DNA from: a phage
Direction: 5' to 3' (one strand)
DNA length: 64,000 nt
Assembly: GCA_014435945.1 (NCBI GenBank)
Contig: GCA_014435945.1_4088.1
The notes below the pieces were generated by a model. It did not search any database, was not told where the DNA came from, and saw only the letters and a program-made list of their open reading frames with translations. Made by a program: the position numbers and the translations under genes. Numbering within the stretch: position 1 is the stretch's first letter; each line of letters starts with the position of its first letter. Shown one piece after another: positions 30,269 to 52,809 of this stretch.

Positions 30269-30697
30269 ATGAATATCGAACAAACTATCCGTAACCATTC
30301 TTTCTTCGCTGCTGAAACTGGTCGTGTAATCGAGAGCGTCAAAATTGAAGAACTGATGATTAACGTTAAATATAAAGAACTGAATGATGAGATTAGCAGC
30401 ACCATTTGTGCACTACGTGCTCCATTCCGTTCTGAAGCAGCTAAGAAACCTGCTTATGTACTGGCGATTGCATTGGGTTGTGTAGTGAAATTGGTCGTTG
30501 ATGAAAATCAACTAAATATCAAAGTTGCTCCAACTAACGATGAAGAAAACATCGACCTGAACTTTGAAGGTAATCTGGCTGAAGACGTATTCTTCCAACA
30601 ATCACTGGTTTATGATTTCCGTACCGTAACTCATGACCATATCAACTTTGTCAATGAGATGGTTGACATTGTAGCTGAATACGAAGCTTCCCTATAA
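30269..30697 (+). CDS. paralog family A protein (C-terminal EE..FQ.S.V.D module)
   Basis: AEDVFFQQSLVYDF near C-terminus; terminator follows. Confidence 0.6.
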   Translation: MNIEQTIRNHSFFAAETGRVIESVKIEELMINVKYKELNDEISSTICALRAPFRSEAAKKPAYVLAIALGCVVKLVVDENQLNIKVAPTNDEENIDLNFEGNLAEDVFFQQSLVYDFRTVTHDHINFVNEMVDIVAEYEASL

Positions 30698-30710
30698 TTA
30701 GATTAACAAA

Positions 30711-30735
30711 AGCCTCCGTAATGGGGGCTTTTTCC
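30711..30735 (+). terminator. intrinsic terminator
   Basis: AGCCTCC / GGGGGCT then TTTTT. Confidence 0.55.
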
Positions 30736-30753
30736 AACATAAGGATATGAATA

Positions 30754-31305
30754 ATGATTGACCAAATTAAAATCCTAACTGAACAAATCACTGATTTTCT
30801 AGCAGATAAAGATGGATTCAGTACTGAAGTTAAAATGCATGGTGTTAGTCTCGATGTAACTGCACCAAATGGTGAAACAACCAATTATGATATGTATGAA
30901 ATCCTACTTTATACATTGGCTGTTCGTAAACTTGGTAGTGATATTGAACTAAACATTAACAAAACCGAGAACGGTGACCAAGTGTTTGCAATCAACACTG
31001 GTGCACAAATGGACGTGGTAGCTGAAATCAACAAGATCAACCAATCTTTTGTGGGTTTCAAGCATGATACAATCCAATCTGTGTTCCTGGGTAAACAAAC
31101 CGGAAACAGCCACTGTCCTTATTGTGTAATGACAACCTATAAGAATGGTAACTGGATGCGTCAGGATCTAGTACTTGCTGAAATGCTTTATGCAATCACA
31201 CACGGCCTAGAACTTGAACTTGATGATAGCGTGTACTGTTTCAAGAAAATCCGTAAACTTTCTGGTGATATACAAGCTCAATTAAAAGAATTAAATGATA
31301 AATAA
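30754..31305 (+). CDS. hypothetical protein
   Basis: 183-aa ORF. Confidence 0.5.
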   Translation: MIDQIKILTEQITDFLADKDGFSTEVKMHGVSLDVTAPNGETTNYDMYEILLYTLAVRKLGSDIELNINKTENGDQVFAINTGAQMDVVAEINKINQSFVGFKHDTIQSVFLGKQTGNSHCPYCVMTTYKNGNWMRQDLVLAEMLYAITHGLELELDDSVYCFKKIRKLSGDIQAQLKELNDK

Positions 31306-31462
31306 TTATACCAGTAATGGTTAACATTATCATGTTACTTTCCTCCCTTACATAATAATGATGCGTTATTATTTTATTGTATTATTCCCCTTTTTCGTAC
31401 AAAATCTTTTTCGTACTGCCCCGACCTTCGGGGCATTTTTCTTGTCTAAATTTTGAGGTTCT

Positions 31463-31858
31463 ATGAATAATACTATTGGTAGTACAATATCTAAACCACT
31501 CTCTTATTACCTTGAAAAATTCAGAAGTACAAATGGTAAAAAATTTAATGGCATATACCAATTCTCACATAAAGAATATATCACAGTTGATTGTTATTCA
31601 AATAAACTTATGTACGTAGATGATACTGAATACTGTATGAAATTGTCATTGGATGTAGAATTAGATAAGTTAACATTTATTGAATATACATCCAAAAGAA
31701 CATCATTTCTTGGGAAATGTAATCGAAAAGTATATAAAAATATTTCAATGTACTTAAATGAAGATTACCACTTCCAACAAACAACGATTGAAGATGTTCT
31801 ATTCAGTACTGAAGAATTGAAAGAACTATATTATTGGTATAAGAAATTTACAACTTGA
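31463..31858 (+). CDS. paralog family A protein
   Basis: NEDYHFQQTTIEDV. Confidence 0.55.
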   Translation: MNNTIGSTISKPLSYYLEKFRSTNGKKFNGIYQFSHKEYITVDCYSNKLMYVDDTEYCMKLSLDVELDKLTFIEYTSKRTSFLGKCNRKVYKNISMYLNEDYHFQQTTIEDVLFSTEELKELYYWYKKFTT

Positions 31859-31913
31859 CATTATCGTGGATTTATCCTACACTGTAAGATAATGATGAAT
31901 AGAGGATAAATTT

Positions 31914-32324
31914 ATGAGTTTAGATTTACACAATGAACTAAAATATTATTTCGATTTGGATATATCACATTTGAACCAACACGTCAATTATATGACTAGT
32001 ACTATTTGGTGGTCTGATGAGTTTGATGAACCAAAAATCCAACTTTGTGGTGATTTGTCCGTTTTGAGGTTGTATGCCCTTGATTCGGAAATGAATATCA
32101 AGATCACATACATACCATACACAAACAAACTTATTGTAAACACCCTAAACCCAGTTACAGTATTGAAAATTTCTGATTTGGACACGATACAGTCAGATGA
32201 ATCACTATTCCAACGTTCTTTGATTGATGATATGGGTGGTATTTTATATGAAGATATTGTACAATTGAAGAAGATGTATAGTGAATTGTTAGAAATTAAA
32301 AACACAGTAATTGTGGGGAGTTGA
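31914..32324 (+). CDS. paralog family A protein
   Basis: SDESLFQRSLIDDM. Confidence 0.55.
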   Translation: MSLDLHNELKYYFDLDISHLNQHVNYMTSTIWWSDEFDEPKIQLCGDLSVLRLYALDSEMNIKITYIPYTNKLIVNTLNPVTVLKISDLDTIQSDESLFQRSLIDDMGGILYEDIVQLKKMYSELLEIKNTVIVGS

Positions 32325-32325
32325 T

Positions 32326-32730
32326 ATGGTAAGTTTACTTGATATTGATAATACCAGTCTAGTACTGGCAAAAAAAGGTGTAATTCCCAATTCTACAAAA
32401 ATTGATTATGCAGTTATTGAAACAAATATTGGAAATATCTGGTATGACTCCGAAAGGGATATTGTGATTAGCTGCGTAGACAGTGACCGTGCTGAGTGTT
32501 GTAGGGTTGGTCATGACGGGCAATTTATTTTCGAATTCCGTTACTGGAAAGATGCTAAATTCCATCATGAGCATGTTTCAATTACAGGTGTGTATTGCAC
32601 CGAAGAATCGTTCTTCATGGATAGTACTGTTAATGATTTTGGTTCAGTTACATTTGAGTACTATAAAAAAGTATACAACATATCCAGAGAAGTAATGCGA
32701 ATCATCAGAAATGCTGAGGGTCAAGATTAA
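32326..32730 (+). CDS. paralog family A protein
   Basis: TEESFFMDSTVNDF; start moved to ATG after GGGGAG SD. Confidence 0.55.
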   Translation: MVSLLDIDNTSLVLAKKGVIPNSTKIDYAVIETNIGNIWYDSERDIVISCVDSDRAECCRVGHDGQFIFEFRYWKDAKFHHEHVSITGVYCTEESFFMDSTVNDFGSVTFEYYKKVYNISREVMRIIRNAEGQD

Positions 32731-32731
32731 C

Positions 32732-51037: not shown

Positions 51038-51321
51038 TGGAATTTATTGTTGCACCTGATGAACTAAAAACATTCACGTTCCGAGACAATAACAATTATC
51101 CTTATACAAATCATTCATTGAATTCATTGCATGTTATATCAATCATTGCATCTGAATACAGAGACAATCCATGTATTGATTTTAAAACCACTGATGGTGA
51201 ATATACATGGGTAGTTCCGAACGATAAATACAGTTATCAGGGTGCAGTGGAGATCCGCGACTCGATTCTAAAGCAAATCGAAGATGGACATACTCATCCT
51301 AAACTAAACATTCAGTACTGA
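51037..51321 (+). CDS. hypothetical protein
   Basis: 94-aa ORF. Confidence 0.45.
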   Translation: MEFIVAPDELKTFTFRDNNNYPYTNHSLNSLHVISIIASEYRDNPCIDFKTTDGEYTWVVPNDKYSYQGAVEIRDSILKQIEDGHTHPKLNIQY

Positions 51322-51481
51322 AATCGTTTAACCGGATAGCTTCTAGTCGGTACTGAATTCCTCCTTTTGTCTAGAAGCTATCACTCTTTTAAAGTATAAT
51401 GATATCACCCTCATGGATCATTATATTCGTTACCCTCTAACAGTATCTTTTTTATTCCTCTTTGATACTGTATTTTAGAAG

Positions 51482-51511
51482 TTGACATTTTTACTTCTAC
51501 TGTGTTATACT
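51482..51511 (+). promoter_or_regulatory. sigma70-type promoter
   Basis: TTGACA-N18-TATACT. Confidence 0.45.
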
Positions 51512-51514
51512 TAA

Positions 51515-51545
51515 GGCTGATTCATTATGAATCGGCCTTTTTTCT
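51515..51545 (+). terminator. hairpin plus T-run immediately downstream of promoter
   Basis: GGCTGATTCA / TGAATCGGCC then TTTTTT. Confidence 0.45.
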
Positions 51546-51561
51546 TGTGGGGATTAATGTA

Positions 51562-51978
51562 ATGAATAAAGAAGTTATTAGTTTAATTGATGAGTATATC
51601 AACCAAACATATCGTTTGATATTTTTAAATGAATTTGAGTCCAGAACAACGTATTATTCTGGTGAATATGAGATAATGACTGGATCATTTCTTAACGGAT
51701 ACATGGAGTTTTTAGAACAAAGCGATAATGTTTTCATTTCCATATCTGAAAAACATGGTGATGATTATGTTATTGATGTATGGCCTAATAAAGTAGAGAT
51801 TAACACTACAAAGAAAATTGTAATTGATGTGGATGAATCGTTGTATGATTTAACTGAAGATATGTACATGCAACTAAATTTCGTATACGACCTAACTAAC
51901 ATAAGTTATTCTAATCTAAGTAAATTATTTTATATTTCAGGTGTACTACATAAAAACGTACAACAAAATAAAGGATAA
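51562..51978 (+). CDS. paralog family A protein (divergent)
   Basis: TEDMYMQLNFVYDL; start placed after hairpin. Confidence 0.45.
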   Translation: MNKEVISLIDEYINQTYRLIFLNEFESRTTYYSGEYEIMTGSFLNGYMEFLEQSDNVFISISEKHGDDYVIDVWPNKVEINTTKKIVIDVDESLYDLTEDMYMQLNFVYDLTNISYSNLSKLFYISGVLHKNVQQNKG

Positions 51979-51986
51979 ACATTTAA

Positions 51987-52391
51987 ATGATGAAAATTCC
52001 ACCACATGCACTATCTATGCTAATTGAAAATGGTGTAATATTTTCTGAAGGGTGTGGTTCATTCTATACATGTGACGTGGAGCCGTACACATTTGAATAC
52101 CGTTCATTTAAAAATACATTGAGTGTTCCATGTGAAGCTTCTGACAACATTGTACTTGTCGTTTCGTTCTATGGTGTGCCAAAATTCTTCATTGATATAT
52201 ATTATGATTCTTTTAAGATACAAACATACGATCATTTTCTTGGTGAAGTGCTCTTGCAAATGCAGATTGAACATGTTACTATAGATGAAGATATGTTCTT
52301 TCAGCTATCTACTGTATACGATATGTGTGGATTGACAGTTGACAACATTAATGGTATCTTTGAAATTGCCAGAACCCTACGAGGAAGATGA
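51987..52391 (+). CDS. paralog family A protein
   Basis: DEDMFFQLSTVYDM. Confidence 0.55.
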   Translation: MMKIPPHALSMLIENGVIFSEGCGSFYTCDVEPYTFEYRSFKNTLSVPCEASDNIVLVVSFYGVPKFFIDIYYDSFKIQTYDHFLGEVLLQMQIEHVTIDEDMFFQLSTVYDMCGLTVDNINGIFEIARTLRGR

Positions 52392-52392
52392 T

Positions 52393-52809
52393 ATGGTCAA
52401 AATTTTAAGTGACAATGCGGTTGATATTGTCATTGATGTACTTGAAAACAGTAATACATTTGAGAAGAAACACAGTACTGTATACTTCGGTGAAGATTGT
52501 TGGCTAAGTTATACATCTAATAATTCGTTTATAATTCGTGTTGAAAAGGGTGATGTTGGATTAACGATACATGCCTCCTATACTAAAACTGATAAACAAA
52601 TAACTGTCATCGCTAACAAGCCAAGTACATCCGATTTCTGGGATAGTATTGATGATTGTGAACACTACACGTCAACATTCTATGATACAGAAGAAGAACA
52701 TTTCATGGATAGTACTGTTAAAGAATTATCTGTTCCATTTAAACTTATGAAAGCAGCAAGAGATTTTATTTTAAAATACAAAAAAACAGGAGTTGATGAT
52801 GCAATTTAA
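52393..52809 (+). CDS. paralog family A protein
   Basis: TEEEHFMDSTVKEL. Confidence 0.5.
   Translation: MVKILSDNAVDIVIDVLENSNTFEKKHSTVYFGEDCWLSYTSNNSFIIRVEKGDVGLTIHASYTKTDKQITVIANKPSTSDFWDSIDDCEHYTSTFYDTEEEHFMDSTVKELSVPFKLMKAARDFILKYKKTGVDDAI

Follow-up and report, generated by a model that had tools for sequence, protein, structure and literature searches.

The 64,000-nucleotide stretch of phage DNA analysed here (contig GCA_014435945.1_4088.1 of assembly GCA_014435945.1; hereafter the window) carries, between positions 30,269 and 52,809, 21 small genes whose products share a short motif, EExxFQxSTV, in their C-terminal third. Profile searches identify these genes as part of a single protein family that has undergone massive expansion in RaK2-like jumbo phages and is present in Asteriusvirus, Alcyoneusvirus, Mimasvirus and uncultured relatives. 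By nucleotide identity the window itself belongs to an Asteriusvirus jumbo coliphage: it is 99% identical to the Escherichia phages vB_Ec-M-J, fEgEco12 and Ecwhy_1 and about 87% identical to 121Q, PBECO4, G17 and phAPEC6, the named relatives being jumbo myoviruses of that genus with genomes of 350-385 kb. The family appears to be undescribed. All deposited genomes label the genes in question "hypothetical protein", and neither the family nor its motif or fold is described in the accessible literature on 121Q, PBECO4, phAPEC6, G17, Sharanji, fEgEco12, UE-S1, CBB and RaK2 or in a jumbo-phage survey. We give an even chance to the reading that these genes form a repertoire of early, unpackaged proteins with a conserved frame and a variable surface, which bind or inhibit host or defence factors, a function that we infer.

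Membership of the family and its predicted fold

The initial annotation had picked out 21 open reading frames (ORFs), and each of them is indeed found at the start proposed for it, begins with ATG and encodes 118-171 amino acids (aa). The pattern [DE][DE]xx[FM][QM]xx[TL][VI] occurs 20 times among the six-frame ORFs of the window, always within these 21, whereas 1000 residue shuffles yielded 0.09 matches on average and never more than 2. Chance or composition was therefore rejected as the origin of the motif. The 21st member, 43731 (members are named by their start positions), reads VEEEFQYNLL and has a one-residue deletion in the motif. In every member the motif starts at residue 85-113. Its proposed location, 30-40 residues from the C-terminus, is right for most members and wrong for some, the tail that follows it measuring 26-44 residues in 18 members and 59-78 in the three that carry K/R-rich extensions.

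When a hidden Markov model (HMM) of the C-terminal segment was tested by leaving out one member at a time, 19 of the 21 scored above all 334 non-member ORFs, and these we regard as robust members. The two that failed, 43731 and 42235, ranked 20th and 21st against an HMM built without both of them and their orthologues (E = 3e-4 and 5e-3, respectively; best non-member 0.21), and are weak but probable members. A family HMM built from 197 sequences finds exactly the 21 in the window and no other ORF. Conservation at the level of protein rather than DNA, as originally proposed, is borne out: Phe is encoded by TTC or TTT, Gln by CAA or CAG and Ser by codons of the TCN as well as the AGY type, and under the motif third-position identity is 0.39. 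As the codons vary this freely, the constraint acts on the protein, and a repeated DNA element was rejected as the source of the similarity.

Similarity between members is otherwise scarce. Pairwise BLASTP among the 21 finds three related pairs only, and phmmer and five-round jackhmmer searches with the N-termini alone linked just 43246 with 44535, 50055 with 50473 and 51562 with 51987, with zero decoy matches. The N-terminal regions, which had been described as unrelated, are thus unlinkable by sequence beyond these three pairs; in predicted fold, however, they are alike. For member 30269, AlphaFold2 (predicted local distance difference test score, pLDDT, 85.8; predicted template modelling score, pTM, 0.82) places a helix at residues 3-8, seven strands within 19-100 and further helices at 105-114 and 122-141. 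For 43246 (pLDDT 82.5, pTM 0.75) it places a helix at residues 10-14, seven strands within 24-89 and helices at 94-103 and 111-150. Although their N-termini are dissimilar, the two models share one topology, consisting of a first helix (alpha1), seven consecutive strands, the motif helix (alpha2) and a last helix (alpha3). The motif is the ten-residue alpha2 itself (105-114 in 30269, 94-103 in 43246), and alpha3 is extended in the basic 43246. The earlier picture of a modular protein with a variable head on a constant tail does not agree with these models, both of which are a single compact domain with the motif helix inside the fold. Profile alignments with distant relatives cover nearly the whole length, as do those of the 197-sequence HMM with the members, and the N-terminal part keeps to a narrow length range (median 95 aa). 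Since the N-termini are unlinkable by sequence, the case for a single fold rests on structure prediction together with these full-length profile alignments.

Profile information peaks at positions 94-106, which read T/S, E (0.83), E (0.75), x, F/Y, F (0.91), Q (0.73) or M (0.14), x, S (0.68), T/L, V/I, x and D (0.62). The family consensus of the motif helix can accordingly be written T-E-E-x-[FY]-F-Q-x-S-[TL]-[VI]-x-D. The variable helix positions 97, 101 and 105 form one stripe, leaving about 240 degrees of the helix surface constrained, as expected for a helix that would be wedged between a sheet and a second helix and buried on three sides. In the sheet region, an aromatic residue at position 43 (Y 0.75) and alternating I/L/V positions are conserved; the aromatic column depends on the alignment, with the residue number varying from 14 to 56, and is a lead only. 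Each copy, about 120-170 aa long, is predicted to fold into one soluble domain with a seven-stranded antiparallel sheet and an amphipathic C-terminal helix. The constant frame of such a domain would consist of the motif helix together with a small number of hydrophobic or aromatic residues in the sheet, and the remaining sheet would have diverged between paralogs beyond recognition by sequence.

The first reading of the sequence could assign the shared module to no family, and our searches likewise matched it to no described domain. Pfam gave no recurrent match among the 21 members (E<=1) or 150 relatives (E<=0.01), the families without a match in both sets including SUKH, Imm and MAM33 (PF02330). 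NCBIfam gave zero matches, and the best match among PDB sequences (E = 0.12) was not significant. The PHROGs matches comprise 28 families of unknown function, essentially one per orthologue group, with weak cross-matches limited to the C-terminal part. A tblastn search of the family consensus against phages, a method too insensitive for the purpose, returned 21-residue matches at E of about 1 only. A fold search of BFVD returned orthologues, plus weak matches to uncharacterised proteins of RaK2, GAP32 and CBB. Standard pipelines have overlooked the family because pairwise similarity is undetectable and because PHROGs scatters the copies over dozens of singleton families. One of the 150 aligned relatives, not a member from the window, matches a RecQ-1-like helix-turn-helix domain (PF21220, E = 3.7e-12). 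This copy may have arisen by fusion to another domain, or its gene may have been called wrongly; a scan of 18 longer members did not pinpoint the sequence.

Extent, expression and turnover of the family

When 1.84 billion representative proteins were searched exhaustively with the profile (E<=1e-3), 157 clusters emerged, nearly all 115-175 aa in length with EE[ED][YFH]F[QM]xS[TL][VI] at residue 85-125. About two thirds of these clusters have no counterpart in phAPEC6 at >=50% identity. The whole phAPEC6 genome (MK817115), assembled from eight stretches, has 1926 six-frame ORFs, of which 55 match the family HMM (E<=0.01), all on one strand. Set against the 551 predicted gene products given in the phAPEC6 report (PMC7247149), the family makes up about 10% of the genes. 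Twenty of the 55 lie in the array equivalent to that of the window and 30 in a second array at 289-318 kb, where the copies are more divergent, often 150-190 aa long and in some cases only 103-125 aa. The others are gp054c (35.6 kb), two members at 220.7-221.7 kb, one at 237.5 kb and a weak one at 277.7-278.3 kb (E = 1.3e-3). A few extra weak candidates in the second array have E values just above the genome-wide threshold; the genome holds at least 55 copies. The family is thus not confined to positions 30269-52809, and the window holds less than half of the copies in this genome type. The ends of the phAPEC6 genome (gp001-gp010 and gp549-gp551) encode a separate paralogous family of RCC1-repeat proteins of about 40 kDa, annotated as 'DNA condensation' proteins, several of which were detected in virions.

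In other genera, we found 25 members in 48 kb scanned of the Klebsiella phage RaK2 (Alcyoneusvirus; ORF363-439) and 8 in 41 kb scanned of the Cronobacter phage GAP32 (Mimasvirus). Two metagenomic contigs add 11 members in 20.5 kb, next to a gene closest to those of Erwinia phage Hallingskeid and CBB, and 15 members in 20 kb. The arrays consist of 20-31 divergent copies on the same strand. The RaK2 genome paper states that nearly 10% of the proteins are paralogues and does not describe the families (PMC3622015). An expansion to about 35 copies of a zinc-ribbon family in Bacillus phage G was termed unprecedented (Iyer et al. 2021, PMC7824862); the family reported here is probably the largest paralog expansion in any phage genome. 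In both cases a single jumbo phage carries numerous paralogs of one small domain, in tandem and on the same strand, with no assigned role. They differ in fold (alpha-beta7-alpha-alpha, as predicted, here versus zinc ribbon), in copy number (at least 55 in phAPEC6 versus about 35) and in distribution (several genera versus one phage).

Sigma-70 promoters that match the consensus at 11 or more of 12 positions number 33 on the plus strand of the window and 0 on the minus strand, where 2.8 are expected per strand. Eight of the 33 are perfect (TTGACA-N16-18-TATAAT), and all point along transcription. Seventeen lie within 29.5-53 kb, some of them directly upstream of members (47229, 51482), and the T4-late-type TATAAATA occurs a single time in the 64 kb. 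The same concentration of RpoD-like promoters is found in the presumed early region of the related phage CBB. As these promoters are of the host type, the family genes are likely to be expressed early, in a region transcribed by the host RNA polymerase that also holds tRNAs, a C5-methylase and an HNH endonuclease; the early, host-takeover context put forward in the initial annotation is supported. Mass spectrometry detected 62 proteins in phAPEC6 virions, and all 55 family members are missing from this set. Most members in the window (16 of 21) are acidic, with isoelectric points (pI) of 4.0-4.9 and net charges of -8 to -24; the other five are neutral or basic, and three of these (36050, 43246 and 44535) have K/R-rich C-terminal extensions.

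Between the window and its phAPEC6 orthologues, median amino-acid identity is 73.5% for the family versus 87.7% for all other genes. The median ratio of nonsynonymous to synonymous substitution rates (dN/dS) is 0.25 in the family; it is lower both in small neighbours (0.11, Mann-Whitney p 1.8e-3) and in the other genes as a whole (0.087, p 1.7e-5), the family proteins evolving about twice as fast as their neighbours. The values for single members, 0.08-0.81, indicate purifying selection. Copies are also gained or lost between near-identical phages: member 44535 is absent both from the near-identical vB_Ec-M-J and from phAPEC6, and vB_Ec-M-J, at 99% identity, carries a deletion of 51987, a member that is present in phAPEC6 at 68% nucleotide identity.

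Possible functions

According to the reading that we favour, the genes would be transcribed early from host-type sigma-70 promoters and their products would stay out of the virions. The constant helix-and-core frame would carry a variable sheet, and individual copies would neutralise different host proteins, the candidates being host-takeover targets, defence effectors and toxins. Copy number and sequence would then turn over quickly under the conflict between host and phage. Conserved scaffolds with divergent surfaces, arranged in tandem arrays with copy-number turnover, are known from MGF360/505 of African swine fever virus, from the host-range families of poxviruses and from SUKH/Imm arrays. 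The present family resembles such viral multigene and SUKH/Imm arrays in its tandem divergent paralogs, in the gain and loss of copies among close strains, in the raised rate at which its proteins evolve and in its non-structural expression. It differs from them in that there is no sequence relationship, that the host here is a bacterium and that evasion of immunity or defence is here something we infer.

One may speculate further that the family is a built-in library of binders, occupying about a tenth of the genes and offering at least 50 early specificities per genome, which together would neutralise many kinds of host defence or takeover targets, possibly by passing them to a common partner via the conserved acidic helix. 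This extension is possible but rather doubtful. If it is true, no larger paralogous family is known from a phage, and the copies would represent a new class of effectors for host takeover or anti-defence.

Several points weigh against a repertoire of early binders. The early timing rests on promoter sequence, and the same promoters precede replication genes (topoisomerase, clamp loader). The virion proteome has limited sensitivity, several of its entries resting on one or two peptides. Positive selection leaves no direct trace, dN/dS being below 1 in every member, and many pairs are saturated in dS. Both AlphaFold models rest on shallow N-terminal alignments. For the strongly conserved polar positions (E, E, Q, S and D) the profile shows no basic partner that is conserved as well, which is unusual for a purely structural core and would fit a shared functional site. 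Finally, neither an experiment nor a homologue of known function backs a role in binding or anti-defence.

Such a shared site is the core of the main rival explanation, which we consider unlikely. As a surface-level version of the docking suggested in the initial annotation, it proposes that polar residues conserved on the motif helix (E-E...Q.S...D) form a face that docks onto a single hub and that the variable sheet recruits different clients, the copies acting as adaptors; candidate hubs are the phage ClpP, a Clp-type ATPase, GroES-like co-chaperones, the host RNA polymerase and a phage RpoD-like sigma factor. Docking is favoured by the constant position of the motif and by some 200 sequences, drawn from several genera of phages, in which E (95%), E, F (99%), Q or M, S and D are conserved; in addition, the profile offers the two Glu no conserved basic residue to pair with. 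Some of the candidate hubs are annotated in the genomes concerned, namely ClpP in phAPEC6 (gp353c, 263.7-264.4 kb) and RaK2 (RaK2_00489) and a 762-aa Clp-type ATPase in phAPEC6 (gp246c, 176.7-178.9 kb). However, in both models the motif helix lies within the compact domain, and conserved positions that span about 240 degrees with one variable stripe fit burial against the sheet and alpha3 better than they fit an exposed face. The Tyr that is preferred to Phe at profile position 43, in its alignment-dependent column, could moreover hydrogen-bond the Glu or Gln intramolecularly. No partner was identified, and neither co-variation nor fusion lends support to one.

The acidity of most members, down to a net charge of -24, and the order of their predicted structural elements bring to mind p32/MAM33, a doughnut-shaped homotrimer with an acidic face, whose architecture consists of one N-terminal helix, seven antiparallel strands and two C-terminal helices. 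Both AlphaFold2 models, which are predictions, give the same order of helix, seven strands, helix and helix as MAM33/p32/gC1qBP. Acidic oligomers of this kind might act in a generic manner, for instance by imitating nucleic acid or by soaking up basic proteins of the host, those of the nucleoid among them, an explanation that we find improbable. The family has no sequence match to PF02330, and the structural similarity was not reproduced with the second model, for which generic meander sheets dominate the list of the fold search and p32 is absent from the top 60. Homology to MAM33/p32 was considered and not adopted. The polo-box domain, which has a six-stranded sheet plus one helix and a cleft that binds phosphopeptides, was weighed as a further structural candidate. 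To our knowledge the EExxFQxSTV helix motif is not a feature of p32; five members are neutral or basic, and a generic role leaves 55 divergent copies unexplained.

Delivery with the virion, or processing by a phage protease at the FQ motif, had also been raised, and is very improbable. T4-type internal proteins are small and hypervariable with a short constant sequence, and have an unstructured N-terminal leader that is cleaved by the prohead protease. The family shares with them the small size, the hypervariability, the short constant sequence and a location in plastic regions; a T4-like prohead protease (gp227c) exists in phAPEC6, and an inner body is mentioned in the phAPEC6 report (PMC7247149). 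The constant element here, however, is a helix in the C-terminal third (residue 85-113 onward), the N-termini are not conserved and the members were not found in phAPEC6 virions. Sigma-70 promoters rather than late ones precede the genes, the single late-type sequence noted above being the only one in 64 kb. The motif also bears a superficial resemblance to the tobacco etch virus (TEV) site ENLYFQ↓S. In the TEV/NIa site ExxYxQ↓S/G, which lies in an accessible linker, E is at P6, Y at P3, Q at P1 and G or S at P1'. E and Q are conserved in the family, but the segment is a helix inside a domain, the Ser stands two residues after the Gln (P2') instead of at P1', and Tyr occupies the position equivalent to P3 in only 0.23 of the sequences. 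We therefore rejected both a TEV-like cleavage site and a capsid-targeting signal. As to functionless duplicated ORFs or a composition artefact, most copies indeed lack detectable pairwise similarity, and copies are gained and lost between close relatives. This explanation is nevertheless already refuted for practical purposes by the excess of the motif over chance (20 seen, 0.09 expected), by purifying selection, by conservation across Asteriusvirus, Alcyoneusvirus and Mimasvirus and by two confident AlphaFold2 models.

More than 80% of the genes in these phages of 350-380 kb have no known function, and about 10% of the genes belong to this one family. Its recognition merges many "hypothetical proteins" into one testable question and provides a natural scaffold with a conserved frame and a variable surface. 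If the members inhibit host or defence factors, they would constitute a catalogue of candidates and probes for the biology of E. coli, Klebsiella and Cronobacter, and would bear on the therapeutic use of these phages.

Individual members and their surroundings

All members in the window lie on the plus strand; the E values that follow are from the leave-one-out HMM unless stated otherwise. A near-consensus sigma-70 promoter (TTGACA-18-TACAAT, 29974..30003, plus strand) lies upstream of the 30071/30269 gene run, in which the first member, 30269..30697, encodes 142 aa with EDVFFQQSLV at residue 105 (pI 4.55, E = 5.5e-8). It is followed by a terminator-like hairpin at 31417-31435, G+C-rich and then with a T-run, immediately upstream of 31463..31858 (131 aa, EDYHFQQTTI, E = 1.2e-5). 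Next come 31914..32324 (136 aa, DESLFQRSLI, E = 1e-7), 32326..32730 (134 aa, EESFFMDSTV with Met for Gln, E = 1.6e-10) and 32732..33106 (124 aa, EDELFQLSLI, with an alternative ATG at 32711, E = 1e-3). The start of 33103..33558 (151 aa, EEGYFQESLV, E = 1.1e-7) overlaps the stop of the member before it, and 33552..34007 (151 aa, EEALFQLSTV, E = 4.6e-8) is the most acidic of all, with a net charge of -24.

The next members are 36050..36565 (171 aa, EEEFFQRSTI, with the K/R-rich C-terminal extension and an alternative ATG at 36023, E = 3.6e-8), 36562..37017 (151 aa, DEYVFQQSTV, E = 3.6e-3) and 37397..37840 (147 aa, EEMYFQQLTV, E = 1.4e-3). A second terminator-like hairpin of the same make-up, at 42195-42217, lies immediately upstream of 42235, and the two hairpins suggest that new transcription units begin at 31463 and 42235. 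The weak, probable member 42235..42627 (130 aa, EEDEFQKNTT) was missed by the leave-one-out model and was found by the independent full-length HMM at E = 4.7e-3 (rank 21), while its hhalign match is confined to the C-terminal 34 columns. Member 43246..43734 (162 aa, EEERFMLSTI) is basic (pI 9.2) by virtue of its long K/R-rich alpha3 extension. The other weak, probable member, 43731..44135 (134 aa, VEEEFQYNLL), reached E = 0.93 in the leave-one-out test and 3.2e-4 with the independent HMM (rank 20). The N-terminus of 44535..45038 (167 aa, EDVHFQESLV, E = 2.5e-6) is weakly similar to that of 43246.

Directly upstream of 47288..47644 (118 aa, EEEYFQMSTV, E = 3e-8), at a distance of 31 nucleotides, lies a near-consensus sigma-70 promoter with 11 of 12 matches (TTGACT-16-TATAAT, 47229..47256, plus strand). 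Member 48032..48403 (123 aa, EEDEFQKRTV, E = 5.2e-8) stands before 50055..50480 (141 aa, EEKFFQYCLV, E = 1e-10) and 50473..50832 (119 aa, EESLFQYSMI, E = 2.5e-9), the sole pair with clear full-length BLAST similarity. Another near-consensus promoter with 11 of 12 matches (TTGACA-18-TATACT, 51482..51511, plus strand) lies upstream of 51562..51978 (138 aa, EDMYMQLNFV with Met for the near-invariant Phe, E = 6.6e-6). The last two members are 51987..52391 (134 aa, EDMFFQLSTV, E = 4.2e-11) and 52393..52809 (138 aa, EEEHFMDSTV, with an alternative TTG at 52339, E = 9.2e-7).

Embedded between two blocks of family members is a C5-cytosine DNA methyltransferase gene (34665-35525; PF00145, E = 5e-37), and the order of array and then methylase is also kept in a distant metagenomic relative. 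A homing-type endonuclease gene with NUMOD4 and HNH_3 domains (46170-46694) adjoins a tRNA-Arg gene (46065-46138). It is absent at the corresponding site in vB_Ec-M-J and phAPEC6 and is therefore probably a recent mobile insertion. ARAGORN finds a tRNA-Ser gene with the unusual anticodon ACT at 48439-48530. Its counterpart in the 99%-related vB_Ec-M-J has the anticodon GCT and a clearly different sequence, which indicates that the tRNA gene was replaced. Three tandem tRNA-Thr(TGT) genes occupy positions 49805-50038, the second and third copies being identical and the first divergent. This triplet has no blastn match in a 50-kb region of vB_Ec-M-J, where the annotation lists a single tRNA-Thr(TGT) at the equivalent position, and has two overlapping partial matches, at one site, in phAPEC6.

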